Of a stretch of 64,000 nucleotides of DNA, positions 6,751 through 52,879 are shown piece after piece. Origin of the DNA: Oscillospiraceae bacterium (lineage in GTDB: Bacteria; Bacillota; Clostridia; Oscillospirales; Oscillospiraceae); assembly GCA_017619535.1 (NCBI GenBank), contig JAFZSD010000025.1, forward strand, positions 878 to 64,877, read 5' to 3'. Each line of letters opens with the position of its first letter. The stretch's first letter is position 1. The notes beneath the pieces were generated by a model. The model saw only the letters and a list, made by a program, of their open reading frames with translations. It was not told the origin of the DNA and searched no databases. Made by a program: the position numbers and the translations under genes.

Positions 6751-6754
6751 CGTT

Positions 6755-6918: not shown

Positions 6919-6932
6919 TTGCACCCACCCCC
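6919..6932 (+). repeat. Left copy of the 14-bp direct repeat TTGCACCCACCCCC
   Basis: Identical 14-mer at 9451-9464. Related GGGTGCA...ATCTGC motifs lie nearby on both sides (6841-6863 and 9416-9447). Confidence 0.8.
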
Positions 6933-7022
6933 TATACTTTTTGGCGTTTCTCAAGATACGCCAAAAGGTTCTCTAGAGTTATATTTTATCAAAGAACTCC
7001 TTTATATCGCATTATTCTCCCC

Positions 7023-7050
7023 TTGACAACATGGAAAAAGAGAATATAAT
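7023..7050 (+). promoter_or_regulatory. Sigma-70 type promoter for the MYG1/CCA operon
   Basis: TTGACA (7023-7028), 16-nt spacer, TATAAT (7045-7050). Confidence 0.6.
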
Positions 7051-7101
7051 AGCACCCTTTGTTCCTGACGGAAAAGGAATCTGTTCAGGTGGGTGTTGAA
7101 A

Positions 7102-7932
7102 ATGCTAGCTTTGGAAAATACCACTTCTATTTTTGTCCATGCCGGAATATTTCACGCAGATGACGCTTTTGCAGCTGCGCTGGTTATAGCTGCGGCCGGA
7201 AGAGTCATTCCTGTGGAAAGATGTTTATCGGTTCCTAAAGGCCTCCCGGATTCCATAATCATAGCGGATATTGGCCGAGGGAAATATGATCATCACCAGG
7301 ATGATGCAAAGCTCAGAGCAGACGGGAAAAAATATGCCGCCTGCGGACTCCTGTATGAAGAATTGAAGGAGCGTCTGTTCCTCACGGAAGAGGCGAGAGA
7401 GGAGTTTCGTTCCCACTTTATTCTTCCTATTGAGGATGCAGATAACGGCATTTCAAATAATCCTCTAACATGCTATATTGATGATATGAATCCCGATTGG
7501 GACAGGCCGGAGGAAAGCGACAGAAGATTTAGCGGTGCCGTAAAACTGTTCCTAAATCTAATCGAAGCTGCGCAAAGAAAAGAAAAGGCCGCTCTTCGTG
7601 CTGATCATCTTCTCTCTGACGCTTTAGCTAAAGCGGAGGGGAAAGTAGTCCTGCTGGAAAAACCAGTCCCTTGGCAGAGGAGAGTCTGCCAAACTGATAA
7701 TCTGTTTGTGATATATTATTCCCAAAGAGGTGTATGGACCGTTCAATGTGTTCCGGAAGAGCCAGATTCCTTCATTGTCCGATATCCGTTATCACCTATG
7801 GAGGAAATGGAGGGCTGCATATTCTGTCATGCCGGGCGGTTTCTTGCGGCGTTTGACTCGGAGGAACATGCCATAAATGCTGCGAGGAAGCTGGTAAGAG
7901 AAAGTGAGCTGAAGACTAATGGAAATTCCTGA
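7102..7932 (+). CDS. MYG1 (UPF0160) family metal-dependent exonuclease/hydrolase, 276 aa
   Basis: VHAGIFHADDAFAAAL near the N-terminus and GKYDHHQ match the MYG1 signature. ATG 7102 is preceded by AGGTGGG. Confidence 0.75.
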   Translation: MLALENTTSIFVHAGIFHADDAFAAALVIAAAGRVIPVERCLSVPKGLPDSIIIADIGRGKYDHHQDDAKLRADGKKYAACGLLYEELKERLFLTEEAREEFRSHFILPIEDADNGISNNPLTCYIDDMNPDWDRPEESDRRFSGAVKLFLNLIEAAQRKEKAALRADHLLSDALAKAEGKVVLLEKPVPWQRRVCQTDNLFVIYYSQRGVWTVQCVPEEPDSFIVRYPLSPMEEMEGCIFCHAGRFLAAFDSEEHAINAARKLVRESELKTNGNS

Positions 7933-9298
7933 AAACAAAAATGTCGTCATGGCAAGGATGATAGCTCAAAAGGTGGCGTTGGAAGGTGGCAGGGCCTTCT
8001 ATGTCGGCGGCATTGTGCGGGATCATATACTTGGCCTGGATAATAAAGATGTGGACATTGAAATACATGGAATCACGCCGGAGAAACTTGCTGAAATACT
8101 GGAGACTTTCGGAGAGGTCACGAAAACAGGATTGAGTTTCGGCGTGTTCGGACTGAAGAAGTATGAAATCGATATTGCCATGCCCCGGAAAGAGACGGCT
8201 GTTGGCCGCGGGCACAGGGATTTTGAAATTGATGTTGACCCATTCATAGGATACGAAAAAGCCGCCTTGCGACGTGACTTCACAATGAACGCCATGATGG
8301 AAGATGTGCTAACCGGTGAGATCCTGGACTATTTCGGTGGCAGAGAAGATATGAAAAAACATCTGATTCGCCATGTGAATGATGCCACATACCGGGAGGA
8401 CGCTCTGAGAGTCCTCCGTGCTGCACAGTTTGCCGCAAGATTCCAGTTTGAGATCGCAGATGAGACACGATATGTATCACAGACTATGAATCTGGCAGAA
8501 CTTGCACCGGAGAGAATTCATGATGAATTGAATAAAGCTCTCATGAAAGCAGAGAAGCCCAGTGTTTTCTTTGATGAAATGCGGAAGATGGGGCAACTGT
8601 CCCAGTGGTTCCCGGAGATAGAAGCCCTGATTGGCGTTCCGCAAAATCCTGCGCATCATCCTGAGGGGGATGTCTGGTCTCATATGCTGATGGTGCTTGA
8701 CGCCGCTGCAGAGCTGAGAAACGATGCAAAATATCCGGAAGGCTTCATGATGTCCGCGCTCACCCACGATTTGGGAAAAGCAGTCTCTACCATTGTGGAA
8801 GAGAACAAGGTTAGCTCAATCGGACACGAAATAACCGGAGTTGCGCTTGCAAGGCAGTTTCTGAGTAGAATAAGCAACGAAAACAAACTGGCGCACTATG
8901 TTCTTAACATGGTTGAGCTTCATATGAGGCCAAACATGATGGCAAGTGACAGAGCCGGTCGAAAAGCGACTTCGAAGATGTTTGATCAGTCGGTATGCCC
9001 AGAGGATCTTCTCCTTCTTGCAAAAGCGGATTATTTTGGCAAAGGCAATGCGAAGGATTACAGCACAACCGAAGCTTTCCTTCAGGAACGCCTTTCAACC
9101 TATCGGGAGCTTATGTCGCGACCATTTGTCCAAGGGCGGGATCTGATTGAGGCAGGCATAGAACCAGGGCCAGATTTCAACGAAGCGCTGGCTTACTCGC
9201 ATAAGATGAGACTTGCGGGCGTCCCCAAAGCTGATGCTCTGGCACAGACGCTGGCCTATATCAGGAAAATGAGGCAAACACCGAGCGGGAAGATATAG
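7919..9298 (+). CDS. Class II tRNA nucleotidyltransferase (CCA-adding/poly(A) polymerase family) with C-terminal HD domain, 459 aa
   Basis: GGIVRDHILG, DVDIE, RRDFTMNA and EDALRVLRAAQFAARF head-domain motifs, plus HD motifs AHHPEGDVWSH and HDLGK. Overlaps the MYG1 gene by 14 nt. Confidence 0.85.
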   Translation: MEIPENKNVVMARMIAQKVALEGGRAFYVGGIVRDHILGLDNKDVDIEIHGITPEKLAEILETFGEVTKTGLSFGVFGLKKYEIDIAMPRKETAVGRGHRDFEIDVDPFIGYEKAALRRDFTMNAMMEDVLTGEILDYFGGREDMKKHLIRHVNDATYREDALRVLRAAQFAARFQFEIADETRYVSQTMNLAELAPERIHDELNKALMKAEKPSVFFDEMRKMGQLSQWFPEIEALIGVPQNPAHHPEGDVWSHMLMVLDAAAELRNDAKYPEGFMMSALTHDLGKAVSTIVEENKVSSIGHEITGVALARQFLSRISNENKLAHYVLNMVELHMRPNMMASDRAGRKATSKMFDQSVCPEDLLLLAKADYFGKGNAKDYSTTEAFLQERLSTYRELMSRPFVQGRDLIEAGIEPGPDFNEALAYSHKMRLAGVPKADALAQTLAYIRKMRQTPSGKI

Positions 9299-9415
9299 CA
9301 ACATCTGACACTATACCCGTTATGTGAGAAAAACATAGCCCTACCTTCACTGCCTATTATATTCAGGAAAAAAGACGACCACAACGTCCAATTGGATGTA
9401 TTCGGCAAAAAAGAA

Positions 9416-9447
9416 GGGTGCAGATGCGGTTTGCATAATCTGCACCC
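9416..9447. repeat. 10-bp stem inverted repeat next to the right direct repeat
   Basis: GGGTGCAGAT (9416-9425) / ATCTGCACCC (9438-9447). Confidence 0.7.
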
Positions 9448-9450
9448 ACT

Positions 9451-9464
9451 TTGCACCCACCCCC
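9451..9464 (+). repeat. Right copy of the 14-bp direct repeat TTGCACCCACCCCC
   Basis: Identical to 6919-6932. Confidence 0.8.
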
Positions 9465-9520
9465 CTTTGGAGGTAAGAAACGCCGAATTGTATGAATACT
9501 GGAGTCCTAACGCATGAATA

Positions 9521-9550
9521 ATAGCCGCTGGCTTTGAAGCCGGCGGCTAT
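9521..9550. terminator. Bidirectional hairpin between the CCA operon and the convergent ATPase gene
   Basis: ATAGCCGCTGGC / GCCGGCGGCTAT (one mismatch), followed by TTCTTTAT. Confidence 0.5.
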
Positions 9551-9554
9551 TTCT

Positions 9555-10922
9555 TTATCCTGTGGGCAATGTTGTTCTCCAATCAAAGAGAAGAAATGAC
9601 ATGTAATGCGGGATCGTCAGTACTCTGTCAGAAACACAAAGGTTTGAATCCTTGATCCGGATCAATCGTGTTTCCCCGTAATGGTCAGGATTTGCCATCA
9701 CCGTTTTAGCGCTTTTTGTGTTTCCGTCGACAGCTTTGACCTCAAGGATCGTGGATTCCCCGTGATAATTGATAACAAAGTCCAGTTCCAGTCTGCTTTC
9801 TTTTGCAAAGTAGAAAAGCCTTCCTCCGCGTTTATACAGTGCATCAGCGATCAGCGATTCATAGATCACGCCTTTCCCCATTCCCAGTTTTCCGGACAGT
9901 ATTGCTTCTGTTGTTCCGTCTTCAAGCATTCCCACCAGCATGCCTATGTCTGTAGTGAATACTTTATACTTGTTTTGAATTACATTGACCGAAAGCGGAG
10001 TCGCCGGAACAGTCAGATTGTGAACTTTCGTGATGACACCTGCATCTTTCAGATAATCGAGCGCATCTTTCCCTGAGTCTTTTGCACCTTTGCCTGCAAT
10101 ATGTGAAACTATGAATCTCTTATTCTCTTTTCCCAAAAATGACGGTATCAGCGAAAAAGCGCTCCTGATCCTCGCAACCTCGTTTGCGTTGAAAATCGGT
10201 TTATTGTCCTTGCCCCGACGTCTTCCGAAATCATCCTGGAGATTTCTGGTGATTCTTCTGGTAATCTGGATCGTCGAGTAGATATTGTTAGTCTCCACAT
10301 AATTGCAGACCGCCTCCGGGAATCCTCCGACACACAGATACTCCCTGAACAGTGCAGTAAAAGAGTTGTGCATGGATTTTGACAAAGGTTTCTGAGTTTC
10401 AAGTGCTTCTCTGATGTAGGACACTTCCCTGTCCGTATACCCTTTAGCCCACAGGAATTCTTCGAAATCCAACGTTCTCATATCAAACTCATCTGTGCAG
10501 CCAACAGGTTTGGGTGTATCGTCAGAAACAACATAACCATTTACCCCCAAATATGAGCCTGACGCAATATAGTCGAATCTCTTATCATTTGCTACTGTTT
10601 TTAACGACAAGAGAGCCCTCGGGCATTCCTGCACCTCGTCATATATGAAGACTGTGGTTCCATATTGCAACTCTGGCAGCGGCATCTTCACGGATAACTC
10701 ACGGATGATCGTATCCACATCCAACTCGCCGTCAAACACGTCGATCAGGTCAGGTCTGTCCCAAAAGTTGAGGTAGATCACTACTTGATAATTGCTTTCA
10801 GCAAACAACCTGATTGAATGTGTTTTCCCCGATTGTCTTATGCCTCTAACCAGTGCCGGTTTATGATCATGGTCTTCTTTCCACCCCATAAGCCACTTGT
10901 CTATGTGTCTTTTTAATTCCAC
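9555..10922 (-). CDS. AAA+ ATPase with DUF4143-type C-terminal domain, 455 aa
   Basis: KPALVRGIRQSGKTH Walker A and FIYDEVQ Walker B. GTG start at 10922 is preferred (GGAGGG SD 7 nt upstream; VELKRHIDKWL...) over the ORF-track start at 10970. Confidence 0.7.
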   Translation of the reverse strand: MELKRHIDKWLMGWKEDHDHKPALVRGIRQSGKTHSIRLFAESNYQVVIYLNFWDRPDLIDVFDGELDVDTIIRELSVKMPLPELQYGTTVFIYDEVQECPRALLSLKTVANDKRFDYIASGSYLGVNGYVVSDDTPKPVGCTDEFDMRTLDFEEFLWAKGYTDREVSYIREALETQKPLSKSMHNSFTALFREYLCVGGFPEAVCNYVETNNIYSTIQITRRITRNLQDDFGRRRGKDNKPIFNANEVARIRSAFSLIPSFLGKENKRFIVSHIAGKGAKDSGKDALDYLKDAGVITKVHNLTVPATPLSVNVIQNKYKVFTTDIGMLVGMLEDGTTEAILSGKLGMGKGVIYESLIADALYKRGGRLFYFAKESRLELDFVINYHGESTILEVKAVDGNTKSAKTVMANPDHYGETRLIRIKDSNLCVSDRVLTIPHYMSFLLFDWRTTLPTG

Positions 10923-10956
10923 CTGACATCCCTCCAACACATATGATACACATATA

Positions 10957-11012
10957 TTCGGAAAAATCAAGGCGAGTTTTAAAACATTTTCGGAAAAATC
11001 AAGGCGAGTTTT
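10957..11012. repeat. Perfect 24-bp direct repeat, two copies 32 bp apart
   Basis: TTCGGAAAAATCAAGGCGAGTTTT at 10957-10980 and 10989-11012, immediately upstream (minus sense) of the ATPase gene and at the AT-rich/GC-rich transition. Confidence 0.9.
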
Positions 11013-11065
11013 GAAAAGAAAGCGGAAACACTGACAGCAAAGTAACGAACTATGATATTGCAGAG

Positions 11066-22299: not shown

Positions 22300-22565
22300 T
22301 CCGCAGCGTTAACAGTTCCCTTTGCCTTCCGTCCTTCGGCAAAGAGATCGCGGCAAGCAGGTCTTCCGACTCACGCATCACCGGGGATACACGGCCTTCT
22401 CGGTCTCCCAATGGCCTGCTTTCGCATCGTGCTCCCTCCGCGTTCACGGCGGCGGTTCCGTCCGGGAATCTCACCCGGTTCTCTATTATCTCATCGCGGC
22501 CTTTACGGGAACCGGCCGTGATGAGCACTTGTCGTCGTTATGCAGTTTTTCGGATTCGCTATTTT
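22300..22565 (-). promoter_or_regulatory. Cobalamin (B12) riboswitch leader of the cbi operon
   Basis: Reverse strand reads ...GAACCGGGTGAGATTCCCGGACGGAACCGCCGCCGTGAA...GCCATTGGGAGACC...GAGTCGGAAGACCTGC (B12 box, about 22358-22373). Promoter TTGACA-17-TACAAT lies at 22604-22576. Confidence 0.8.
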
Positions 22566-22646: not shown

Positions 22647-22971
22647 TTGACATCATATGCCAATTGGTGTATGCTAACTTCAATTGAATATGTATCCAAG
22701 TGCTCGGCAGGGCCTTCGGGCTCTGCCGGGAGAATAGGAAATCCGGTCAAAATCCGGAACGGTACCGCCACTGTGATTGCGACAGTTCGCGCATTGGACG
22801 AAAGTCGGCCATTGGGAAACTGAGAAGGCTTTGCGCGAATGACGAGGCATGAGTCAGGAGACCTGCTTGGATATCTGAGGGTGTGCATTCCCACGGATCT
22901 TGGGGAGGCAGGCTTGCGTTTGCTGCGTAAAAACGGTCGCGGCGGGATCTTCCCGCCGCGGCTTTGTTTTT
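22647..22971 (+). promoter_or_regulatory. Promoter plus cobalamin (B12) riboswitch plus terminator controlling the lipoprotein operon
   Basis: TTGACA (22647) -17- TATGCT. Aptamer AATAGGAAATCCGGTCAAAATCCGGAACGGTACCGCCACTGTGA ... GCCATTGGGAA ... GAGTCAGGAGACCTGC (B12 box). Terminator CGCGGCGGGA/TCCCGCCGCG plus T-run at 22938-22971. Confidence 0.85.
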
Positions 22972-36265: not shown

Positions 36266-37825
36266 TCAGGCCTCCTCCTCCGTGCCGATGGACTCCTTGA
36301 CCGTGACCATGATCTTGCGGTCATAGCAGGAGAATATCGAATCCACGCGTTCCATATCCGGTGCTTTCGTGAAAGCGCTCACCAGCGGGACGATTATGAA
36401 TCCGGCCAGCATGCAGAACGCGCCGGCGTTTATAGGGGACTTCAGGATCGCCGGGAAAGCGCTGCGGACGAGGACGTTTGCCAGCATCACGACGGTGGAG
36501 AATATGAAGTTCACGGTGCAGGCCGCCTTCGTCGTGCGCTTCCAGTAGAGACCGTACAGGAACGGGGCCAGGAACGCGCCGGCCAGCGCGCCCCAGGACA
36601 CGCCCATGAGCTGCGCGATGAACGATACGTTCGAGTTATACTGGAAGATCGCGATCACTGCGGAGATGACGATGAACACCGCTATGAGGATCCTGATGGA
36701 TATGAGCTGCTGCTTTTCGTCCATCTCCTTCTTGACGCTTCCCTTTATGAAGTCGAGGGTGAGCGTCGAGCTGGATGTGAGCACCAGGGACGAGAGCGTG
36801 GACATGGAGGCGGAGAGGACAAGGATAACTACTATAGCGATGAGTATCGCGGGCAAGCCGGAGAGCATGGCGGGGATAATGGCGTCGAAACCTTCTGTCG
36901 CAACGTTGACCCTGTCGCCGAAGAGCCTTCCGAAACCGCCGAGGAAGTAGCATCCGCCGGCGACTACGAACGCGAACAGCGTGGATATCACAGTGCCTTT
37001 GTTGATGGATTTCTCGCTCTTTATCGCGTAGAATTTCTGGACCATCTGCGGAAGTCCCCAGGTGCCGAGAGACGTGAGTATCATGACGCCCAGTAGGTTT
37101 ACCGGATCGGGCCCGAAGAAGGAGGCGAAGATGCCCGGAGTCTCGGAGACGGAAGTATCCGTGACCTTACCCAGAGCGTCCAGTGCCGACATGAATCCTC
37201 CCTGGCTCTTGAGGACCGCGACGATTACGGCTACGATGCCGAACAGCATTATGATGCCTTGGATGAAATCGTTGACTGCCGTCGCCATGTATCCGCCGGC
37301 GATGACATATACCGCAGTCAGCACCGCCATCGCTATGACGCACACGGAGTAGTCGATGCTGAACGCCATGCCGAACAGGCGGGAAAGGCCGTTGTAAAGA
37401 GACGCTGTATAGGGGATGAGAAAAATGAAGATTATCGCGGAGGACACGAGCTTCAGTCCTCTGGAGTCGAAACGCCTGCCGAAGAACTGGGGCATCGTGG
37501 CGGAATCGAGATGCTGGGTCATGATCCTAGTCCTGCGGCCGAGGACTACCCAGGCCAGGTAGGAACCGAGTATGGCGTTTGCTATGCCGGCCCATGTGGC
37601 CGCTATACCGTATTTCCATCCGAACTGTCCCGCGTAGCCCACGAAGACGACCGCGGAGAAGTAGGAGGTGCCGTATGCGAACGCAGTGAGCCACGGACCG
37701 ACGTTGCGTCCTCCGAGGACGAATCCGTTGACGTCTGTTGCGTGTCTGCGGCAATAGATGCCCACACCTACCATGATTCCGAAGAAAATAACGAGTATCG
37801 CGATTTTTACACCAAGACCGGACAT
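36266..37825 (-). CDS. Sodium:solute symporter (SSS) family transporter
   Basis: 519 aa, about 13 TM, N-terminal FVLGGRNVGPWLTAFAYGTSYFSAVVFVGYAG typical of the SSS family. Confidence 0.8.
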   Translation of the reverse strand: MSGLGVKIAILVIFFGIMVGVGIYCRRHATDVNGFVLGGRNVGPWLTAFAYGTSYFSAVVFVGYAGQFGWKYGIAATWAGIANAILGSYLAWVVLGRRTRIMTQHLDSATMPQFFGRRFDSRGLKLVSSAIIFIFLIPYTASLYNGLSRLFGMAFSIDYSVCVIAMAVLTAVYVIAGGYMATAVNDFIQGIIMLFGIVAVIVAVLKSQGGFMSALDALGKVTDTSVSETPGIFASFFGPDPVNLLGVMILTSLGTWGLPQMVQKFYAIKSEKSINKGTVISTLFAFVVAGGCYFLGGFGRLFGDRVNVATEGFDAIIPAMLSGLPAILIAIVVILVLSASMSTLSSLVLTSSSTLTLDFIKGSVKKEMDEKQQLISIRILIAVFIVISAVIAIFQYNSNVSFIAQLMGVSWGALAGAFLAPFLYGLYWKRTTKAACTVNFIFSTVVMLANVLVRSAFPAILKSPINAGAFCMLAGFIIVPLVSAFTKAPDMERVDSIFSCYDRKIMVTVKESIGTEEEA

Positions 37826-37849: not shown

Positions 37850-38159
37850 AAATAAATCCTCCGGCCCGTACGGGCACAGAGGACGAAATTACTTCGTGGT
37901 ACCACCTCAGTTTACCGTGTCCTCACGGACGCGGCCTCTGGGATACTTACATATCCGCAGCGCTGTAACGGGCGCCCCCGTCTCTCTTACTCGCGCTTTT
38001 CGCGCTTTCGGATCGCAGCTCGGAAGGGTAATTCAGACACTGCGCTCTGCCGTCTTGCACCGACCGGCGGCTCTCTGAAAAAGCGATCCAGCGTCTTACT
38101 GAGTCTTCGTCATCGCGTTTCTTGTGTCGTACTTTAACACTTTAACTTGTAAAAGTCAA
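37850..38159 (-). promoter_or_regulatory. Promoter plus T-box riboswitch leader controlling the SSS transporter
   Basis: Reverse strand: TTGACT-17-TAAAGT (38159-38131); GA/K-turn GATGACGAAG; AGTAA; AGAGAG; GGTGCAAG distal loop; specifier-loop string TGAATTACC-CTTCCGAG; T-box GAGGTGGTACCACG (about 37893-37910); terminator TCCTC...GAGGA plus TTTATTTTTTT. Confidence 0.75.
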
Positions 38160-38257
38160 TAGCGTTTTTTCTAATTTTTCAGCCGTTTCCCGGACGGCGG
38201 CTATACAAAGTGCCCGAAACCGGCGCAGGTCCCGGGCTCATCCCCCGCCCTTTCGCA

Positions 38258-38286
38258 TTGCGCCGCCGGGCATAAACTGTTATAAT
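38258..38286 (+). promoter_or_regulatory. Putative promoter of the Card1-like gene
   Basis: TTGCGC-17-TATAAT with a TGT extended -10. Confidence 0.45.
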
Positions 38287-38317
38287 GGCCGCATAAGGTC
38301 ATTAAGGAGCGTCCGAC

Positions 38318-39487
38318 ATGAAGACACTTATAGAACTGTATGACGAACGGCCGGTCGAAAACGTGCTCGCGGGGGAGATCTTCCGCCCCGAGACGATCGT
38401 GTTCCTGTGCCCCACCGAAGCGGCCCAGGACAAGGTCATGCAGAGAAAGATGCGGGAGTTTTTCGCACACCGCGGCGTGAAGACCGAACTCGTGTTCCTT
38501 GAGAGCAGCATGTACTACGCCCAGAAGATAAAAAAGCAGCTCCAGACGGTCACGGAGACGTATCCCGACTGCGTCCTGGACATAACGGGCGGCACGGACG
38601 CCGCGCTCTTCGCCGGCGGCGCGCTCTGCGCCGAGACAGGCATACCCGCATTCACGTACAGCCGCAAACAGAACAAGTTTTTCGACATCCACAACGCGCC
38701 CATGGCAGAGGACCTCGAATGCAAGGTCGAATACAGCGTCGAGGACTGCTTCCTCATGGCGGGCGGAGCTCTCCGCACGGGCCGCGTGGACAACGCAGCG
38801 CTCAGCGCGTATCTGGGAGATATCGAACCGTTCTTCAATACTTATATGAAGCACCGCCGCGACTGGGTGGAGATCATAAACTACATCCAGCGCGTCTCGT
38901 ACGTCCCCAAGGACGACCCGATAACTCTCGACGTGTCCGGTGCGTATGAGGTCAAGGGCGAGCGCGGCACCCGCATAAAGGCCGACGAGCCCGCGCTGAA
39001 GGACTTCGAGGAGATAGGCTTCATAAAGGACCTGCGCTTCACGGACGACGGCGTCTCCTTCCGCTTCCGCGACGAGATGACGCGCACCTTCCTCCGCGAC
39101 GTCGGTATGGTCCTTGAGCTCTACGTATATAAGGCCTGTCTCGACAGCAGGCTGTTCGGCGACGTCGTAACCAGCGCGGTCGTCGACTGGGACAGCGACC
39201 ACATGCGTGAAGGAGTCACAAATGAGATCGACGTCATGGCGACCCGGGGCATCGTGCCGCTCTTCGTGAGCTGCAAGACCGGCGACATCAGCACCGAGGC
39301 GATAAACGAACTGGCCATACTTCGCGACCGTTTCGGCGGGAACATAGCAAAAGCCGCCATCGTCACGGCGGAGCGCTGCCGCGCCATAACCCGGCACCGG
39401 GCCTCCGAGCTCTCGATCGAGGTCATAGACATCGACGACATCTCCGATGGCCGTCTCGAATGGCACATCGTGAAGCTCATGAAATAA
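38318..39487 (+). CDS. Card1/Can2-like protein: N-terminal CARF-like Rossmann domain plus C-terminal PD-(D/E)xK nuclease (DUF1887-like), 389 aa
   Basis: Motif order parallels Card1: DITGGTDAALFA (CARF xITGGT), VGMVLELYVYKACL (cf. GGWFEEYVY), NEIDVMATRGIVPLFVSCKTGD (cf. ELDVIY...VIECKS). Confidence 0.65.
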   Translation: MKTLIELYDERPVENVLAGEIFRPETIVFLCPTEAAQDKVMQRKMREFFAHRGVKTELVFLESSMYYAQKIKKQLQTVTETYPDCVLDITGGTDAALFAGGALCAETGIPAFTYSRKQNKFFDIHNAPMAEDLECKVEYSVEDCFLMAGGALRTGRVDNAALSAYLGDIEPFFNTYMKHRRDWVEIINYIQRVSYVPKDDPITLDVSGAYEVKGERGTRIKADEPALKDFEEIGFIKDLRFTDDGVSFRFRDEMTRTFLRDVGMVLELYVYKACLDSRLFGDVVTSAVVDWDSDHMREGVTNEIDVMATRGIVPLFVSCKTGDISTEAINELAILRDRFGGNIAKAAIVTAERCRAITRHRASELSIEVIDIDDISDGRLEWHIVKLMK

Positions 39488-39507
39488 CGCAGCGTTATAA
39501 GAAAAGC

Positions 39508-39548
39508 GCCCGAAGCTGTCCGACCGGACAGCTTCGGGCATATTTTTT
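39508..39548. terminator. Bidirectional terminator
   Basis: 14-bp perfect stem GCCCGAAGCTGTCC / GGACAGCTTCGGGC followed by ATATTTTTT. Confidence 0.8.
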
Positions 39549-39567
39549 GTTTGGTTCCTGAAACAGG

Positions 39568-40320
39568 TCAGATCCACAGTTTCGCCGCCGTAATGATGAG
39601 CGCCAGCAGCAGCGAAAAAACGATCAGGTATATCCAGTCTCTCTTCTTCATGACGAGCCTGCGCATGCTGGTGCGCTTCGGAAGCGCCCGGAACGCGCGG
39701 GCCTCCATGGCCACGGACATCTGCTCGCTCCTGCGTATCGCTCCGGCGACTATGGGCACGGCCGTTTTCAGATACACCTGCAGGCGCTGTCTTACGGGCA
39801 CCTTTTTTATCCTGGTCCCGCGCATCTGAACGGCGCACATCACGTCCTGCGCCTCTTCTCTCAGGAGGGGCAGGAAATGCAGTCCGGCCATGACCATGAA
39901 CGACAGCTCGTAGGGCAGGCCCAGCTGGTTCAGGGCAAGCAGGTAGTCCCTCCGCCGGCCGGTAAGTATTATGAGCGCCGAAAGGAGCACTGTCAGAAGA
40001 CGCAGCATGACGTAAAGGGCCGCGTTGAGCCCTCCGCGGGTCACGAGCGTGAAGTTCCCTATCCGGACAAGGGGATCGCCGCTCCTGTCGAATATGCACT
40101 GGAGGATGAATACGGATATGATCAGCCCCACCGCCCCGCGCACGCGCCAGAGCGCTTTGCTCACAGGCACACCGCCCGCAGCGAGAATAAGGAGCGTGAA
40201 AACCAGGAGCATGAGCATCAGCACCGGATCTCTCGCAGCCACGGAGGCCGTGGAGATCGCGAGCATCATGAAAAGCTTTACTCTCGGGTCGAGCGTCTCG
40301 AGCTTCACTCGATCACCCAC
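39568..40320 (-). CDS. ecfT: ECF transporter transmembrane (T) component
   Basis: CbiQ/EcfT-like 250-aa membrane protein at the end of the ECF operon. Confidence 0.8.
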   Translation of the reverse strand: MGDRVKLETLDPRVKLFMMLAISTASVAARDPVLMLMLLVFTLLILAAGGVPVSKALWRVRGAVGLIISVFILQCIFDRSGDPLVRIGNFTLVTRGGLNAALYVMLRLLTVLLSALIILTGRRRDYLLALNQLGLPYELSFMVMAGLHFLPLLREEAQDVMCAVQMRGTRIKKVPVRQRLQVYLKTAVPIVAGAIRRSEQMSVAMEARAFRALPKRTSMRRLVMKKRDWIYLIVFSLLLALIITAAKLWI

Positions 40321-43117: not shown

Positions 43118-43668
43118 GTCTTTTTCCTCCTGATCCCGTAACGGCTCAGCGCCTCCAGAAGCAGCCAGCTGAGCACTCCTCCGACGCCGCCGGAAAACGC
43201 GGCGACGCAGAGGCTGAGAAGCATCGGTATCAGGGGAAGCGAAAAGAATACGAAGTTCACGCATACCGTGCCCGCGACGTTTGCCAGTATCCCCGCAAGT
43301 AGCGCCAGAGGCATCGAGTCGATCCCGCGGCGCAGGACCAGGAACACGAGATCCACGAGGATCCCGGGCGCGGTATAGCTCAGCAGGCTCATGGCCCCGT
43401 GAGAACCGGATACTCCCGTTATCATGACGAGGATCGCCTGCACGAGGCCGACGAGCGTCGCGGTACCGTGCTTTCCCGTGAGTCCGAAGGCCACGACCAT
43501 CCACATCATGTAGAGGCCGCCGGCCAGGGCCCCGCCGGGTATCATCAGCGGCGTGCTTATAAGATGCGCGAGGGGCACGACGACGGGCTTTATCGCTATG
43601 CCCAGCGCGGCCATCGCGGCGATCAGCACCAGATCCCGCACTGTGAATTTTCTGAAAAGACCTTTCAT
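43114..43668 (-). CDS. ECF transporter substrate-specific (S) component, substrate unknown
   Basis: 184-aa six-helix membrane protein starting MKGLFRKFTVRDLVLIAAMAALGIAIKPV. ATGA overlap with the upstream gene. Confidence 0.65.
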   Translation of the reverse strand: MKGLFRKFTVRDLVLIAAMAALGIAIKPVVVPLAHLISTPLMIPGGALAGGLYMMWMVVAFGLTGKHGTATLVGLVQAILVMITGVSGSHGAMSLLSYTAPGILVDLVFLVLRRGIDSMPLALLAGILANVAGTVCVNFVFFSLPLIPMLLSLCVAAFSGGVGGVLSWLLLEALSRYGIRRKKT

Positions 43669-44504
43669 CAGATGACCTCTATGCTCACGATCCCCCGGGT
43701 CCAGTACGTGCGGTTGTACTCGCCCTCTATCTGCTGGCCCATCACGAGGCGCAGAGCGCAGGGCGCGCCGTCCTCGCTCCACGCGAGGATCATGCTCAGC
43801 GCGGCGGAAGGATCCTGTTCATTTATATATACGGCGTCTATGGCGCTGCGGGTATGTCCCGCGGTGTATCCGTCGCCGGCGATAAACACAGCCTTGCTGA
43901 GATCCCATGCGCCCACCACCTGCTCCAGCAGGTAGCTCACGCTGATCCCGACAAAGTAGTATGTGGCCTCCTGGGGCTCTTTGCCGCGGGAGAAGTAGTC
44001 GGCGCCGACCGTGCCGCCCAGTTCCATCAGATCGGCCAGAGAGAAGTACCAGTCGTGCGACAGCGACGCTCCGTATACGGTGAGTATCGTGTCGCCGGAA
44101 AGCTCCGAATACGGCTCCGGCTCCGGCTCGGGTTCCGGTTCCGGTTCGGGCGCCGGTTCCGGTTCATTCTCGGGTTCGGGCGTCGGTTCCGGTTCATCCT
44201 GCTTCTGTTCCGGCTGTTTCTCCGGTTCAGGCTCAGCCTCTTTTTCCGGCTCTTTCTGATCTTCGGGCTCCGGCTCCGGCTGCTCCGGCTTTTCCGCCGG
44301 TTCCTCCTCCGCCTTTTCGGGAGTTGTCTGCTCCGGCACGGTCTCCGCCGTGCCGGCATCGGCGTCTTTCTCCGGCGTTACAGCCGCGGACTGTTCATGC
44401 TGCGCAGGCGCGTCCGGCGCCGTTTCGCCGGCAGGCGTCTGCGAACCGCACGCCGCTATTAGCAGCAGAGCGGCCGCAAGAATTATCGTCAGGAGTTTTT
44501 TCAT
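43668..44504 (-). CDS. Lipoprotein: long Glu/Pro-rich linker plus C-terminal Oxidored_molyb-like domain
   Basis: MKKLLTIILAAALLLIAAC lipobox. (EP)n and PEKE repeats. The C-terminal ~130 aa are paralogous in pattern to 41603..42112. Confidence 0.6.
   Translation of the reverse strand: MKKLLTIILAAALLLIAACGSQTPAGETAPDAPAQHEQSAAVTPEKDADAGTAETVPEQTTPEKAEEEPAEKPEQPEPEPEDQKEPEKEAEPEPEKQPEQKQDEPEPTPEPENEPEPAPEPEPEPEPEPEPYSELSGDTILTVYGASLSHDWYFSLADLMELGGTVGADYFSRGKEPQEATYYFVGISVSYLLEQVVGAWDLSKAVFIAGDGYTAGHTRSAIDAVYINEQDPSAALSMILAWSEDGAPCALRLVMGQQIEGEYNRTYWTRGIVSIEVI
44095..44300 (-). repeat. Low-complexity coding repeat (CCGGYTC-type units) encoding the EP/EPEK linker
   Basis: ccggctccggctccggctcgggttccggttccggttcgggcgccggttccggttc... 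translates on the minus strand to EPEPEPEPEPEPEP and EKPEQPEPEPEDQKEPEKEAEPEPEK. Confidence 0.85.
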
Positions 44505-44609
44505 TCCATTCAGCCCCGATGCAAAAACGTTCCGGCAAAAACTTTCCTGCCGCCCGTCGGAATACCGCCGTCGGACCGGAAGGCACATATGCCCGTTTGC
44601 CTGCGTCAG

Positions 44610-47570: not shown

Positions 47571-47880
47571 TTGACATACACATCCCCGTGTGATAGACTC
47601 ACGCCATAATTCAATATCAAAGGCTGTGACGAAGACGGCCGGAGCGGTGTGCTTCAGAGAATCGGCGGGTGGTGCAAGCCGACAGTATGACGCTCCAGGT
47701 GCCCATCACTTCCGAGCCGGAGGCCCGAACGCATCTGTCAGTAGGCGTCTCCCGTGAATGCTGCGTTAATGCAAAGGACTTGATGGAGTCCGCAGAGAGG
47801 CGTCTTTTCAGACGCAATTTGAGTGGTACCGCGGGTAATGACCCGTCTCAAAGGATCGACTTTGAGACGGGATTTTTTGT
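47571..47880 (+). promoter_or_regulatory. Promoter plus T-box riboswitch 1 (specifier read as AUC, Ile)
   Basis: TTGACA-17-TAGACT (47571-47599); GTGACGAAG; helix GGAGCG/CGCTCC; CAGAGAA; GGTGGTGCAAG; specifier-loop 3' strand AGGTGCCCATCA-CTTCCGAGC (AUC at 47705-47707); T-box AATTTGAGTGGTACCGCGG (47816-47834); terminator CCCGTCTCAAAG...CTTTGAGACGGG plus T6. Confidence 0.8.
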
Positions 47881-47897
47881 TGCAGGAGGCAATTATC

Positions 47898-50168
47898 ATG
47901 GACAAGACCTATACCGAAGTGAACAAGCTCATCGAGATCGCGACCCGAATCAAGGAGATGCGCGAGATCAAGGGCTATTCCGTAAACGAGATGGCCGAAA
48001 AGACCGACGTCAGCCCCGTCGAATACAGGCGGCTGGAGTCCGGCGCCGTCGACTTCCCGTTCACTTTCATACACAAGTGCGCTCTCGCCTTCGGTCTTGA
48101 GATAACCGACCTCCTCGAGGGCTACAGCGCGAAGCTGTCGTCCTATACCGTGACGAGAAAGGGCCAGGGCCAGATGACCGCCGACGAGGAGGGCATCGAG
48201 ATTCGGAACCTCGCCCCGCTCTTCAAGAGCAAGCTCGCCGAGCCCTACTGGGTCAAGTACGAATACTCCGAAGAACAGCAGGACGCGCCCATCCACCTCA
48301 CCAAGCACAGCGGCCAGGAGTTCGACATCGTCATCTCCGGCAAGCTGAAGGTCCAGGTGGGCCGCCATGTCGAGGTCCTCGAGGAAGGCGACAGCATCTA
48401 CTACAACAGCTCCGCTCCCCACGGCATGATCGCCGTCGGCGGACAGGACTGCCTGTTCCTCGCGGTCGTCATGACCGGCGACGACACCGGCGAGGCGGAG
48501 ATCCGTCAGACGGTCTCCACCGCGATGAAGACTGAAAAGCTCATCTGCGAGGAGTTCATCGACACAGTCGAGGACGAGAACGGCGCGCTGACCAAGATCC
48601 GCTTCTTCAACGACGACTCATTCAACTTTGCCTTCGATATCGTCGATGCCATCGCGGACAAGGCGCCTGAAAAGCTCGCCATGGTCCACGTCGCGAACGA
48701 CAAGACCGAGCGCCGGTTCACCTTCAAGGATATAAAGAAGGAGTCGAACCGCACCGCCAACTACCTGCGCTCCCTCGGCGTCAAAAAGGGCGACCGCGTC
48801 ATGGTCGTACTGAAGCGTCACTATCAGTTCTGGTTCACCATGATCGCTCTCGAGAAGATCGGCGCCATCGCGATCCCGGCGACCAACCAGCTCCAGCAGC
48901 ACGACTTCGAATACCGCTACGAGACCGCCGGCGTCTCCGCGATCATCTGCACGGCGGACGGCGACACCGCGCATCAGGCCGATCTCGCGGCCGAGAAATT
49001 CCCGCGGGTCGCGACGAAAGTCATCGTCGGCGAGCCCCGGGAGGGCTGGCGCGACTTCAACAGCGAGTACAAGATGTTCAGCAGCCGCTTCGAGCGCACC
49101 GAGGATTCCATCAGCGGCGACGACCCCATGTTCATGCTCTTTACCTCCGGCACCACCGGATATCCGAAGATCGCGCTGCACACCTGCAAGTATCCCCTCG
49201 GCCACTACATCACCGCCAAGTACTGGCACTGCGTCGAGCCGAACGGTCTCCACTTCACCATCGCCGAGACCGGCTGGGGCAAAGCCCTCTGGGGCAAACT
49301 GTTCGGACAGTGGCTGTGCGAGGCAGCCGTGTTCGTATACGACTTCGACCGCTTCAACGCGGACGAGATACTCCCGATGTTCGCAAAATACCACATCACC
49401 ACGTTCTGCGCGCCTCCCACGATCTACCGCATGCTTATCAAGCAGGACATCTCCAAGTACGACTTCTCCTCCGTGAAGCACGCCACCACCGCGGGCGAAG
49501 CGATGAATCCCGAAGTGTTCCGCCAGTTCGAGAAGGCCACGGGCCTTAAGATCATGGAGGGCTTCGGCCAGACCGAGACCACCCTCACCCTCGGCAACCT
49601 CATCGGCAATCCCCACAAGATCGGCTCCATGGGCCGCCCGTCCCCGATGTACGACGTCGACCTCGTCGACAGGGACGGCAACCCCGTGCCCGACGGCGAG
49701 ACCGGCGAGATCGTCATCCACACTGACAAGGGGAATCCCTGCGGCCTGTTCGCCGGATACTATCACGAGACCGGCGTCACCTATGAGGCCTGGACCGGCG
49801 ATCTCTATCACACCGGCGACCTCGCGTGGCGCGACGAGGACGACTTCTACTGGTACGTCGGCCGCGCGGACGACGTCATCAAGTCCTCCGGCTACCGTAT
49901 CGGGCCCTTCGAGATCGAGAACGTCATCATGGAACTGCCCTACGTCCTCGAGTGCGGCGTGACCGGCGAGCCAGACGATCTCCGCGGCCAGATAGTCAAG
50001 GCGAGCATCGTCCTGACAAAGGGCACCGAGCCCACCGAGGAGCTCAAGCGCGAGATACAGGACTACGTAAAGCAGCACACCGCTCCCTACAAGTATCCCC
50101 GCAAGATCGTCTTCCGCGACAGTCTGCCGAAGACGATAAGCGGAAAGATCCAGCGGAACCTTCTCTGA
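47898..50168 (+). CDS. Three-domain fusion: XRE HTH plus cupin plus AMP-forming acyl-CoA synthetase (medium/short-chain type), 756 aa
   Basis: ATG 47898 after GGAGG. HTH IKGYSVNEMAEKTDVSPVEYRRLESG. Cupin GQEFDIVISGKLKVQVG...YYNSSAPHGM. ACS motifs FTSGTTGYPK, GYRIGPFEIENV and SGKIQR. Confidence 0.85.
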   Translation: MDKTYTEVNKLIEIATRIKEMREIKGYSVNEMAEKTDVSPVEYRRLESGAVDFPFTFIHKCALAFGLEITDLLEGYSAKLSSYTVTRKGQGQMTADEEGIEIRNLAPLFKSKLAEPYWVKYEYSEEQQDAPIHLTKHSGQEFDIVISGKLKVQVGRHVEVLEEGDSIYYNSSAPHGMIAVGGQDCLFLAVVMTGDDTGEAEIRQTVSTAMKTEKLICEEFIDTVEDENGALTKIRFFNDDSFNFAFDIVDAIADKAPEKLAMVHVANDKTERRFTFKDIKKESNRTANYLRSLGVKKGDRVMVVLKRHYQFWFTMIALEKIGAIAIPATNQLQQHDFEYRYETAGVSAIICTADGDTAHQADLAAEKFPRVATKVIVGEPREGWRDFNSEYKMFSSRFERTEDSISGDDPMFMLFTSGTTGYPKIALHTCKYPLGHYITAKYWHCVEPNGLHFTIAETGWGKALWGKLFGQWLCEAAVFVYDFDRFNADEILPMFAKYHITTFCAPPTIYRMLIKQDISKYDFSSVKHATTAGEAMNPEVFRQFEKATGLKIMEGFGQTETTLTLGNLIGNPHKIGSMGRPSPMYDVDLVDRDGNPVPDGETGEIVIHTDKGNPCGLFAGYYHETGVTYEAWTGDLYHTGDLAWRDEDDFYWYVGRADDVIKSSGYRIGPFEIENVIMELPYVLECGVTGEPDDLRGQIVKASIVLTKGTEPTEELKREIQDYVKQHTAPYKYPRKIVFRDSLPKTISGKIQRNLL

Positions 50169-50227: not shown

Positions 50228-50565
50228 TTGACAAGCGGCCGGAGATTATGGTAAACTCCACTTCAAGTTAATATTTCAAAGGCGTTGACGAAGAGGGCCC
50301 GGGAATCTGTGCTTCAGAGAATTGGCGGACGGTGCAAGCCAACAGCAGCAGCCCCCGGTGTTTGTAGCTTCCGAGCCGGAGAGAAGAACGCGGCCCCAGC
50401 CGTCAGTAGAACTCTCCCGTGACTGCTGCGTGAATGCATAGGGTTTGTCAGAACCCAAGAGTGGCGCTTCTTAACGGGCGCAATTTGAGTGGTACCGCGG
50501 GTATATATGCTCGTCTCAAAGATTTATCATGATCTCTGGGGCGAGCTTTTTTCGTCCCGAACCGG
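50228..50565 (+). promoter_or_regulatory. Promoter plus T-box riboswitch 2 (specifier read as GUA, Val)
   Basis: TTGACA-18-TAAACT (50228-50257); TTGACGAAG; helix CCGGG/CCCGG; CAGAGAA; GGTGCAAG; specifier-loop 3' strand TGTTTGTAG-CTTCCGAGC (GUA at 50364-50366); T-box CAATTTGAGTGGTACCGCGG (50481-50500); terminator hairpin plus TTTTTT. Confidence 0.8.
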
Positions 50566-50575
50566 AGGTATTTTT

Positions 50576-52879
50576 ATGGCAGCGACGACAGGTCTTACCT
50601 ACAAGATCCAGGAGATGGCCAACCGCATCCTGGAGCTCCGCGAGATAGAGGGGCTCTCCCAGGCTGAAATGGCGGAAAAGACGGGCGTCTCCCTGGAGGA
50701 ATACATCGCGTGCGAATCAGGCGAGAGCGATCTCAACTTCGCTTTCATCTACCGCTGCGCGCTGGCGTTCGGCGTGGACGTCACGGATATCATCGAAGGC
50801 CAGAGCCCGAAGCTCCGCTCCTACACCCTGACCAGAAGGGGCGAGGGCCAGAGGATCGAACAGGCCCACGGCATGGTGTACTACAACATGGCCGCCACCT
50901 TCAGGAACAGGATATCCGAGCCTCTGTTCGTCATCTCCACCTACGACGAAGCCGCCCAGAACAGGGACATCGAGCTCACGACCCACGAGGGCCAGGAGTT
51001 CGACATCGTCGTCAAGGGCCGCCTCAAGGTCCAGGTCGGCGATCACATAGAGACTCTATCTCCCGGCGACACCATCTACTACGACAGCGGCACGCCCCAC
51101 GGCATGATCGCGGTCGGCGGAGAGGACTGCCACTTCTACGCGATCGTCCTCACTCCCGGCGAAAAACCGGAGGCGGAGGCCGTCGAGGCCGAAAAGGAAT
51201 CGCTGCAGCCGAAAAAGGGCAAAAAGCACACTCCCGGCCAGCACATCTGGGAGAACTTCATCGTCCCCGAAGAGGACGAGAACGGCGCCCTCAAGGCTAT
51301 TTCCTTCAAAAACGCGGACAAGTTCAATTTCGCTTTCGACGTCGTCGACGCCCTGGCCCGGCGGAACCCGGGAAAGCTCGCCATGCTGCACGTCGACAAG
51401 CACATGAACGAGCGTTATTTCACCTTCAACGACATAAGCCGCTACTCTTCCAAGGCGGCGAACTACTTCACGTCCCTCGGCATAGGCAGAGGCGACAAGG
51501 TGGTCCTCATACTGAAGCGCCACTACCAGTTCTGGTTCGCCGTTATGGGCCTGCACAAGATCGGCGCCATCGCGATACCCGCTTCCAACCAGCTTCTTTC
51601 CCACGACCTCGAGTACCGCTTCAACGCCGCGGGCGTCAAGGCGGTCATAGCTACCTGCGACGACGGCGTACCGGATCAGGTGGACATAGCGGCTCAAACG
51701 AGCCCTACTCTCGAGTGCAAGATCATGGTCGGAGGAACGCGCGACGGCTGGCACGATTTCGACGGCGAGTTCCGCATGTTCAGCGAGGAGCTCATCCGTC
51801 CGGCAGACGGCGTGCTGCCCTGCGGCAGCGAGCTCATGCTCATGTTCTTCACCTCCGGCACCACCGGATACCCGAAGATCGCCGCGCACAACTATAAATA
51901 TCCTCTGGGCCACTTCGTCACGGCCCGTTACTGGCACTGCGTGAATCCCGACGGCCTGCACCTCACGATATCCGACACCGGATGGGCGAAATCCATGTGG
52001 GGCAAGCTCTACGGCCAGTGGCTCAACGAGGCGGCCATATTCGTCTACGACTTCGACCGCTTCGACGCCAACAAGATCCTCCCGCTGTTCGCCAAGTACC
52101 ATATAACGACGTTCTGCGCGCCGCCCACCATGTACCGCATGCTCATAAAGGAAGACCTGTCCCGCTTCGACCTGTCCTCCATAGAGCACGCCACCATCGC
52201 CGGCGAGGCGCTCAACCCCGAGGTCTTCCGCCAGTTCGAGAAGGCGACGGGACTTCAGATCATGGAGGGCTTCGGCCAGTCCGAGACCACGGTCATGATA
52301 GCCAACACCGTTGGCATGACCCCGAGGGTCGGCTCCATGGGCAAGCCCGTTCCGCTGTACAACATCGACATAGTCGATCCCGACGGCAATTCCGTGCCCG
52401 TCGGCGAGACAGGCGAGATCGTCGTCCGCACCGACAGGGAGAACGCCCCCTGCGGTCTCTTCAGCGAGTACTACAGATCGCCCGAGCACACCGACGAAGC
52501 GTGGCACGACGGCTGCTACCACACCGGCGACACCGCGTGGCGGGATGAGGACGGTTATTACTGGTACGTCGGCCGTGTGGACGACCTTATAAAATCCTCC
52601 GGCTACCGCATAGGGCCCTTCGAGATCGAGAGCGTCATCATGGAGCTCCCCTACGTCCTCGAATGCGGCGTATCCGCCGCCCCGGACGATATCCGCGGTC
52701 AGGTCGTAAAGGCGAGTATCGTCCTTACGAAAGGCACCGTACCCACGGAGGAGCTCAAGAAAGAGGTCCAGCAGTACGTCAAGACGCACACCGCGCCGTA
52801 TAAGTATCCGCGTATCGTCGTGTTCCGCGACGAGTTGCCCAAGACCGTCAGCGGAAAGATACAGCGCAACAAACTCTGA
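50576..52879 (+). CDS. Paralogous XRE HTH plus cupin plus AMP-forming acyl-CoA synthetase fusion, 767 aa
   Basis: ATG 50576 after GGAGG. Same domain order and motifs as 47898..50168 (FTSGTTGYPK, GYRIGPFEIESV, SGKIQR). Confidence 0.85.
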   Translation: MAATTGLTYKIQEMANRILELREIEGLSQAEMAEKTGVSLEEYIACESGESDLNFAFIYRCALAFGVDVTDIIEGQSPKLRSYTLTRRGEGQRIEQAHGMVYYNMAATFRNRISEPLFVISTYDEAAQNRDIELTTHEGQEFDIVVKGRLKVQVGDHIETLSPGDTIYYDSGTPHGMIAVGGEDCHFYAIVLTPGEKPEAEAVEAEKESLQPKKGKKHTPGQHIWENFIVPEEDENGALKAISFKNADKFNFAFDVVDALARRNPGKLAMLHVDKHMNERYFTFNDISRYSSKAANYFTSLGIGRGDKVVLILKRHYQFWFAVMGLHKIGAIAIPASNQLLSHDLEYRFNAAGVKAVIATCDDGVPDQVDIAAQTSPTLECKIMVGGTRDGWHDFDGEFRMFSEELIRPADGVLPCGSELMLMFFTSGTTGYPKIAAHNYKYPLGHFVTARYWHCVNPDGLHLTISDTGWAKSMWGKLYGQWLNEAAIFVYDFDRFDANKILPLFAKYHITTFCAPPTMYRMLIKEDLSRFDLSSIEHATIAGEALNPEVFRQFEKATGLQIMEGFGQSETTVMIANTVGMTPRVGSMGKPVPLYNIDIVDPDGNSVPVGETGEIVVRTDRENAPCGLFSEYYRSPEHTDEAWHDGCYHTGDTAWRDEDGYYWYVGRVDDLIKSSGYRIGPFEIESVIMELPYVLECGVSAAPDDIRGQVVKASIVLTKGTVPTEELKKEVQQYVKTHTAPYKYPRIVVFRDELPKTVSGKIQRNKL

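Follow-up and report, generated by a model that had tools for sequence, protein, structure and literature searches.

An orphan Can2-family CARF-nuclease of Oscillospiraceae with an acidic sensor motif, probably gated by a ligand other than cyclic oligoadenylate

CARF domains are treated as receptors for the cyclic oligoadenylates (cOA) of type III CRISPR systems, yet numerous CARF genes are located away from any CRISPR locus and have no assigned ligand. What such a gene responds to is the question raised by a 64,000-nucleotide stretch of an Oscillospiraceae bacterium genome (GenBank assembly GCA_017619535.1, contig JAFZSD010000025.1, positions 878 to 64,877 of the forward strand; the window hereafter), which carries a gene for a 389-residue protein (the query). 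An earlier reading of the letters, referred to below as the original prediction, had described it as an orphan Card1/Can2-like CARF-nuclease with no CRISPR-Cas system or cyclase in the window. The analysis established a two-domain fold, the lack of cas, CRISPR, or cyclase neighbors in the window or in related loci, and strong purifying selection on the gene. We consider it probable, at roughly 0.6, that the query would act as a stand-alone, CRISPR-independent Can2-like nuclease gated by a ligand that is not a cOA. The DUF1887/Can2 family and the precedent of an orphan member are already known; what differs here is a conserved, charge-reversed sensor motif combined with a rearranged catalytic site.

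The family assignment was examined with profile libraries, solved structures, and a predicted structure. The PADLOC model CARF4--CARF_PDDEXK (PDLC01895) matched residues 1-386 of 389 with an E-value of 6e-47, and Pfam Card1_endonuc (PF09002) matched residues 263-377 with 28.9 bits, above its gathering score of 26.4 bits; NCBIfam held no model for the 389-residue protein. Single-sequence phmmer searches of the Protein Data Bank (PDB) gave weak matches for the whole protein (E 0.18-0.34), and the nuclease domain alone did not reach TbrCan2. A profile of 66 sequences (A2) matched five solved structures along their full length: SthCan2 (7BDV, 5.4e-22), VC1899 (1XMX, 2.2e-17), Can2 8BAO (6e-15), Card1 (6WXW, 4e-9), and Cdn1 (8Z4I, 2e-6). 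The AlphaFold2 monomer model had a predicted local distance difference test (pLDDT) value of 95.4 and a predicted template modeling (pTM) score of 0.91. When this model was submitted to Foldseek, the first match was VC1899 (6e-23, template modeling (TM) score 0.74), followed by Can2, Cdn1, Card1, TbrCan2, and Can1, with TM scores of 0.69-0.74 to VC1899 and Can2. The N-terminal CARF domain and the C-terminal PD-(D/E)xK domain form the Can2/Card1 architecture of about 350-440 residues, and the middle domain aligned with the insertion found between the CARF and nuclease domains of Can2 and VC1899 (profile alignment; PMC7969007). Homologues numbered 2974, with thousands of them full-length at ~390 residues. 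The likeness to Can2/Card1 is far beyond chance, and membership in the Can2/Card1/DUF1887 fold family is genuine; the identity given in the original prediction was thus borne out by hidden Markov models, profile, and predicted structure, and the peptides quoted there were all located in the product (CVLDITGGTDAALFA at residues 85-99, VLELYVYKACL at 265-275, and NEIDVMATRGIVPLFVSCKTGD at 302-323).

The sensor domain departs from its cOA-binding relatives at the residues that contact the ligand. All seven Can2 clades keep the CARF motif NxTGGTK, through which cOA is bound (PMC10783487), and the contacts to cyclic tetra-adenylate (cA4) conserved between Can1 and Can2 are Ser19, Thr42, Lys99, and Tyr118 in SthCan2 numbering (PMC7969007). 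In the profile alignment to SthCan2, Card1, and 8BAO, the counterpart of the motif reads D88-I-T-G-G-T-D94 (DITGGTD), with D88 at the position of the motif Asn and D94 at that of the motif Lys, and S19/T42/K99/Y118 become D9/P32/D94/T113; D9 aligned with Ser19 of SthCan2 and Ser11 of Card1. The pocket residues of the query are E6, D9, N15, D88, T90-G91-G92, and D94. Conservation here and in the active site was counted over 110 full-length representatives, down to ~27% identity: E6 was kept in 104/110, D9 in 102, N15 in 108, G91 in 109, and G92 in 108, while position 88 was Asp or Glu in 104 and position 94 was Asp or Glu in 90 and Lys or Arg in none. Positions 11 and 32 are likewise acidic (D/E) in the clade consensus; their counterparts in VC1899 are D11 and D34 (PMC7969007).

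Makarova et al. 2014 (PMC4012209) read a Lys or Arg after strand 4 as the signature of nucleotide binding, and the lack of it as pointing to a non-nucleotide or otherwise different ligand. RtcR-type and other CARF domains likewise lack this residue and were predicted to bind a different ligand (PMC4012209); the RtcR-type effector is a sigma54 AAA+ transcription activator from another CARF clade, having in common with the query the functional logic alone. From the aligned positions we infer that the acids D9, D88, and D94 line the CARF cavity and that the pocket of the clade is chemically opposite to a cA4 site. The changes of Asn to Asp and Lys to Asp in the motif argue against cOA sensing; given the DxTGGx(D/E) motif and the replaced Ser/Thr/Lys/Tyr contacts, the pocket would therefore not be expected to bind polyanionic cA4 or cyclic hexa-adenylate (cA6). 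The parallels drawn in the original prediction between these segments and the Card1/Can2 motifs conceal telling differences: DITGGTD is unlike the cOA-binding NxTGGTK, and the SCK of the nuclease domain is unlike ECK.

The closest precedent for such a pocket is VC1899 of Vibrio cholerae, the founding DUF1887 member, which shares with the query the two-domain architecture and a lack of type III CRISPR association in addition to being the best Foldseek match. VC1899, which cA4 does not regulate and whose RNase activity in vitro was no more than weak and unregulated, was read as a degenerate former CRISPR effector that had been 'cast adrift' (PMC7969007). At the four cA4 sites it carries D9, D34, R96, and V115, with D9 common to the query, and in both proteins an acidic/hydrophobic pocket takes the place of the cA4 contacts, the pattern of a VC1899-like orphan. 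The two proteins are ~16% identical, and VC1899 keeps ECK, the helix Lys (LYK), and Arg96 after strand 4, whereas the query clade has SCK, Glu331, and Asp/Glu94. Because SCK and N-E331 stand in place of ECK/LYK, the query represents a separate lineage rather than a close VC1899 orthologue.

The cA4-activated type III-B effectors SthCan2, TsuCan2, and the Dysgonamonadaceae Can2 (7BDV, 8BAO), with 7BDV as the best profile match, have the same succession of CARF domain, insertion, and PD-(D/E)xK domain, the same E...ExD...xCK framework, and presumably the same dimeric state. They carry NxTGGTK with its four cA4 contacts, ECK with a helix Lys, and a place in type III loci, whereas the query carries DITGGTD with D9/P32/D94/T113, SCK with Glu331, and no cas genes nearby. 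Card1 of Treponema succinifaciens (6WXW/6XL1), a type III-A effector, has the same fold and equivalent catalytic E/D/K positions; it is more distant from the query, binds both cA4 and cA6 through NITGGTK and Ser11, and has its alpha15 Lys at a position that is Glu in the query.

Could the query nevertheless be an ordinary Can2 that answers cA4 or cA6 made by a type III system or a cyclase elsewhere in the genome? Family membership and the full Can2 architecture speak for this, as do the retained T/S-G-G core of the CARF loop and N15, and the search covered the window and related loci rather than the whole genome. Such a trans-acting effector is nonetheless improbable, since the motif Asn and Lys have both become acids, the four Can1-Can2 cA4 contacts are all replaced (PMC7969007), VC1899 with its similar pocket does not respond to cA4, and the genomic surroundings offered no source of the signal. 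No CRISPR array was found in the 64-kb window (TRF, repeat finder, Rfam), and, of 51 other window open reading frames (ORFs) scanned, none matched a cas or cyclase model in PADLOC. For the 40 ORFs outside a low-GC island at the left end, the PADLOC matches were generic HTH and ABC/AAA only, with none to Cas10, Csm/Cmr, Cas1/2/6, CD-NTase, CARF/SAVED, or ring nucleases; the island proteins matched other defense families and no cyclase. Neither a cas nor a cyclase gene occurred in the ~7 kb past the right edge of the window, which encoded Fe-ADH, a PFL-like enzyme, FeoAB, and YchF.

The same picture was obtained for relatives of the gene. A close relative was present in 229 species-representative genomes, nearly all labelled Oscillospiraceae, Clostridia, or similar gut/rumen metagenome-assembled genomes. 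In 80 fetched loci there was no CRISPR array, cas gene, or cyclase gene within 10 kb and no recurrent neighbor beyond local synteny among close species; 12 further annotated loci likewise had no array, cas gene, or cyclase gene near the CARF gene. With more than 85 related loci examined overall, the gene was never seen beside cas genes or arrays, and the absence of CRISPR-Cas and cyclase genes noted in the original prediction for the window extends to these loci. Four CRISPR k-mer matches in 82 loci were rejected as coding or palindromic tandem repeats lacking unique spacers. Head-to-tail palindromic intergenic repeats were seen at contig ends in three Oscillospiraceae loci (L024 17780-18020, L029 340-680, and L047 19640-19883), with units of ~46-80 nt that each contain a hairpin; a k-mer scan can take them for CRISPR arrays, yet they lack unique spacers.

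On contigs of 87-358 kb with Pfam annotation, the CARF gene stood alone among core genes, at different places in different genera: with mnmA, RNase T, rsgA, rlmN, fmt, def, and priA in one context, with topA, dprA, and greA in a second, and with pgm and HU in a third. No relative was found among IMG/VR viral contigs, and predicted viral protein structures gave no full-length structural match. This chromosomal core-gene setting suggests a long-resident host function and not a mobile defense cassette. The original prediction had left three options: an effector acting for a distant type III or other signaling system, a stand-alone sensor of another nucleotide signal, and a nuclease that has been domesticated. 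Sensing of some other signal and domestication are now favored. The trans-acting type III effector has become the least likely option because all four conserved cA4 contacts are lost from a pocket that is acidic, like that of the cA4-unresponsive VC1899.

The nuclease domain was examined against the published Can2 motif E-ExD-(E/S)CK (PMC10783487), which the query fits with E267...N302-E303-I-D305...S318-C319-K320...N330-E331. The solved relatives read E...N-E-x-D...E-C-K in the alignment, followed by Y-K on the next helix, and the helix Lys of Card1, Can2, VC1899, and 8BAO corresponds to Glu331 of the query in the profile alignment. E267, E303, and D305 were each present in 110/110 representatives, S318 and K320 in 109/110, and E331 in 102/110. 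At the level of sequence, the catalytic constellation of E267, E303, D305, S318, and K320 is intact, and SCK is, as judged by the published motif, an allowed Can2 variant.

Two departures from the solved relatives nevertheless bear on whether the domain cuts. In TsuCan2, an E302A/K304A variant indicated that the Glu of ECK is needed for activity (PMC7969007), and S318 stands in its place; the helix Lys of every aligned solved relative is replaced by E331, and VC1899 is nearly inactive in vitro. A catalytically dead protein, in which Glu to Ser and Lys to Glu had inactivated the nuclease and left a nucleic-acid-binding or regulatory role, would account for these facts. We regard it as distinctly improbable, as E267, E303, D305, and K320 hardly vary across a deep clade and TbrCan2 is fully active with a Ser at this position, where Ser356 contributes to outer-sphere Mn2+ coordination (PMC10783487). 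Moreover, in six distant members SCK goes together with a retained Lys and with an acid placed one turn of the helix before it, (D/E)-E-L-Y-K; by their sequences they look like intermediates, which suggests a functional stepwise rearrangement and not a loss.

The helix position has a documented role in relatives. In Card1, the alpha15 Lys moves into the active site on activation and places a water between the scissile phosphate and the metal (PMC10783487), and K345' of Cdn1, which by its description and not by alignment may be equivalent to the helix Lys, forms a salt bridge to the phosphodiester (Cdn1 paper). We infer that the acidic function shifted from the strand to the helix, with the nuclease still active. 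TbrCan2, a clade 1 Can2 and type III-D effector (8Q3Y-8Q44), has Ser for the Glu of ECK and remains an active two-metal nuclease; like the query, it has a putatively functional residue 13 positions after this Ser on the next helix (K369 in TbrCan2, E331 in the query), an equivalence by spacing only. Unlike the query, TbrCan2 has SxTTS-K, lacks a Lys at Ser+2, carries a large INS domain (437 residues) and NxTGGTK, depends on cA4, and is linked to CRISPR, and its TM score to the query was about 0.6, with no match at the sequence level.

Selection was estimated from the ratio of nonsynonymous to synonymous substitution rates (dN/dS) in a single pair, the query and its closest available orthologue (L002, 83% identity, dS ~0.9); pairs at 70% identity or below, in which dS was saturated or undefined, were left out. 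The ratio for the whole gene was 0.13; by domain it was lowest in CARF (0.063), slightly higher in the nuclease (0.088), and highest in the middle domain (0.33), so that constraint is tightest on the sensor domain. VC1899, whose orphan status and lost cA4 contacts are paralleled here, was proposed to be a decaying former CRISPR effector (PMC7969007), and the query might be considered a relic of the same kind. Purifying selection is strong, with the lowest dN/dS in the CARF domain, and speaks against a relic in decay; full-length homologues of ~390 residues, which number in the thousands, taken with the low dN/dS, likewise count against calling the protein degenerate and 'cast adrift', as was done for VC1899. 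Conservation extends to the replacement residues, and the predicted fold is very confident. VC1899 has been interpreted as degenerate, whereas the query clade is large and under strong purifying selection, and decay is a reading that these values already largely refute and that we hold to be highly implausible.

The alternative that ranks next after a nuclease gated by a ligand other than a cOA is a housekeeping nuclease independent of any ligand, its CARF domain being a dimerization scaffold and its activity being constitutive or controlled by expression, in DNA or RNA repair or turnover. The gene is placed among core genes, in differing positions by genus, and has its own promoter and terminator, and the Can2 nuclease domain resembles EndoMS/NucS (PMC7969007). 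A sister subclade, ~27% identical and with SCK plus DELYK (638 matches), showed stable synteny in the order PHP, GHMP kinase, CARF gene, YgjV, YfhO, and spoIIIA operon, with ispE-like neighbors, and its annotated loci had no cas genes; this core synteny supports long chromosomal residence and fits a housekeeping role. However, the ligand-site residues E6, D9, N15, D88, TGG, and D/E94 are the most conserved of the CARF domain, the lowest dN/dS falls in this domain, beyond what a scaffold needs, and an unregulated non-specific nuclease would be toxic. A ligand-independent nuclease is therefore unlikely, even as the runner-up, and an effector of cOA, a dead protein, and a relic are unlikely as well.

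Some members of the sister subclade carry, 16 nt upstream of the CARF gene and on the same strand, a gene for a ~1130-residue double-AAA+/Peptidase_M41 protein that matched IetA (3e-44) and DolB (8.5e-25) in PADLOC, and in some sister loci a 700-residue membrane-like protein is encoded between the two genes. The AAA+/M41 and CARF genes of the sister clade may form an uncharacterized CARF-nuclease/AAA-protease module. As a partner of the query the AAA+/M41 protein was rejected, being absent from every query-subclade locus.

For the nuclease gated by a ligand other than a cOA, we propose the following mechanism. The protein would probably be a homodimer, its metal-dependent C-terminal PD-(D/E)xK nuclease being under the control of the N-terminal CARF sensor. 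The pocket with DxTGGx(D/E) would not bind cA4 or cA6 and may instead recognize another ligand that is neutral, cationic, or metal-bridged, the binding of which would close the dimer and switch the nuclease on, as cA4 does in Can2. Ser318 may take the outer-sphere metal role of the equivalent Ser of TbrCan2, and Glu331, on the helix where relatives have their phosphate- or water-positioning Lys, may supply the acidic function lost from the strand. The role could be stress- or damage-triggered nucleic-acid cleavage or CRISPR-independent defense. More tentatively, we suggest that a large, vertically inherited Clostridia clade may have re-tuned its CARF domain, by reversing the charge of the cOA-binding motif, to a non-cOA signal that gates a rewired nuclease serving housekeeping, the stress response, or CRISPR-independent immunity of the host; candidates for this signal are damaged nucleic-acid ends and metabolites that are cationic or bound to metal.

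Several points weigh against gating by a non-cOA ligand. VC1899, the closest structural relative, is near-inactive, which fits little nuclease function in such proteins. Coverage was of the window, its right flank, and related loci, and a distant type III system may be encoded elsewhere in the same genome. The assignment of acids to the pocket lining and of E331 to the metal site comes from alignment to solved relatives and not from distances, and D94, with which helix 94-107 begins in the model, may cap that helix structurally and have no part in determining the ligand.

Table 1. Coordinates of the features discussed. Positions are those of the window, except in the last row, where they are those of the loci named.
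Feature	Position	Strand	Basis or remark
Coding sequence, 389 residues, Can2/Card1 family (DUF1887, CARF4 clade), CARF + PD-(D/E)xK	38318..39487	+	ORF, Pfam, PADLOC, homologues, AlphaFold2, Foldseek
CARF (Rossmann-like) sensor domain, residues 1-160	38318..38797	+	Model secondary structure, profile alignment, conservation
Middle helical/beta insertion domain, residues 161-260, most variable part	38798..39097	+	Model secondary structure; dN/dS 0.33
PD-(D/E)xK nuclease domain, residues 261-389	39098..39487	+	Pfam 263-377, conserved motif
Sigma-70-type promoter (putative)	38258..38286	+	Read from sequence; function inferred
Ribosome-binding site AAGGAG, 8 nt before ATG	38304..38309	+	Read from sequence
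Bidirectional intrinsic terminator, common to the convergent ECF-transporter operon	39508..39548	.	Terminator scan and sequence
SSF-family sodium:solute symporter, divergent, upstream	36266-37825	-	Domain annotation
T-box leader of the SSF transporter	37876-38122	-	Rfam RF00230, 105 bits
ECF-type transporter operon (CbiQ/EcfT + two ABC ATPases), convergent, downstream	from 39568	-	Domain annotation
AAA_21 ATPase	1935-3218		PADLOC AbiLi 1e-33, AriA 7e-12
173-residue partner of the AAA_21 ATPase	3221-3742		
HTH+Fic protein	4356-5297		PADLOC PDC-S04 5.6e-110, SoFic
DUF2971 protein	5313-6524		PADLOC PDC-S31 8e-33
MYG1-family exonuclease	7093-7932		PF03690 2.4e-27; overlaps the start of the 7919-9298 gene
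PolyA_pol-head + RNA-binding + HD nucleotidyltransferase	7919-9298		CCA-adding-enzyme-like architecture
PDC-S01 protein	9555-10970	-	PADLOC 4.9e-111
AAA+/M41-CARF arrangement	L090 6587-9985; L092 4461-9984		Sister-clade loci

The signals around the gene are consistent with its being expressed on its own. The putative promoter has a -35 element TTGCGC (38258-38263), a 17-nt spacer, and an extended -10 element TGtTATAAT (38278-38286), that is, a perfect TATAAT with TG upstream; it was missed by a simple consensus scan because the -35 element fits the consensus at 3/6 positions only. The terminator has a GC-rich stem of 14-15 bp (39508-39539) with T-runs on both strands, and the CARF-nuclease gene is monocistronic. 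The GC content at third codon positions (GC3) was 0.82, as compared with 0.77-0.82 in the adjacent genes. The account given earlier of a single gene with its own promoter, a strong terminator, and host-like GC content, set between a transporter and an energy-coupling factor (ECF) operon, agrees with all of these readings. A 632-residue ORF on the minus strand (38201-40099) was discarded as a shadow ORF by the codon-position GC criterion that replaced longest-ORF calling. The T-box leader upstream has a promoter-like site of its own at 38159-38131 (-), controlling the SSF symporter, and the -35 elements of this promoter and of the CARF-gene promoter are ~100 bp apart.

Positions 1-11030 of the window have a low GC content (0.38-0.51, against about 0.60) and look like a defense island, and a 32-nt direct repeat of 2.2 copies (10954-11028) coincides exactly with the change in GC content and may delimit the island. 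The MYG1-family exonuclease and the PolyA_pol/HD nucleotidyltransferase had no PADLOC match; they may constitute a tRNA-end repair or editing pair that travels with the defense genes. The nucleotidyltransferase was also considered as the generator of the signal for the query and rejected, as it lies 29 kb away, has the CCA-adding architecture, lacks a PADLOC match, and is not recurrent near homologues.

Elsewhere in the window, two divergent cobalamin riboswitches lie back to back (22339-22531 on the minus strand and 22682-22884 on the plus strand). The minus-strand riboswitch heads a long operon (11.2-22.5 kb) whose encoded N-termini look like those of cbi/cob cobalamin-biosynthesis genes. 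Tandem paralogues of ~780-800 residues (47823-50168 and 50489-52879) both start with VVPRV, and the source-contig annotation of the first gives HTH_3/HTH_19, Cupin_2, AMP-binding, and AMP-binding_C domains, by which a regulator would be fused, unusually, to an acyl-adenylate-forming enzyme. An imperfect 6/12/18-nt tandem repeat, CGGCTCCGGTTC-like and in 8 register copies, occupies 44090-44276 (-) within a 306-residue ORF (43668-44588, -) that has no Pfam match on record, and it would encode a Glu/Pro-rich low-complexity linker.

VC1899, the one studied orphan relative of Can2, has been written off as degenerate; the query clade, which is abundant in gut and rumen Clostridia, argues otherwise for its own lineage. 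If the protein were to bind a cOA after all, the lysine of NxTGGTK would be dispensable. If the reading of a charge-reversed CARF domain is true, the protein would be a tractable model for the function of orphan CARF proteins, and finding its ligand would define a CRISPR-independent route of CARF signaling and provide a natural experiment in the relocation of catalytic residues in a PD-(D/E)xK nuclease.

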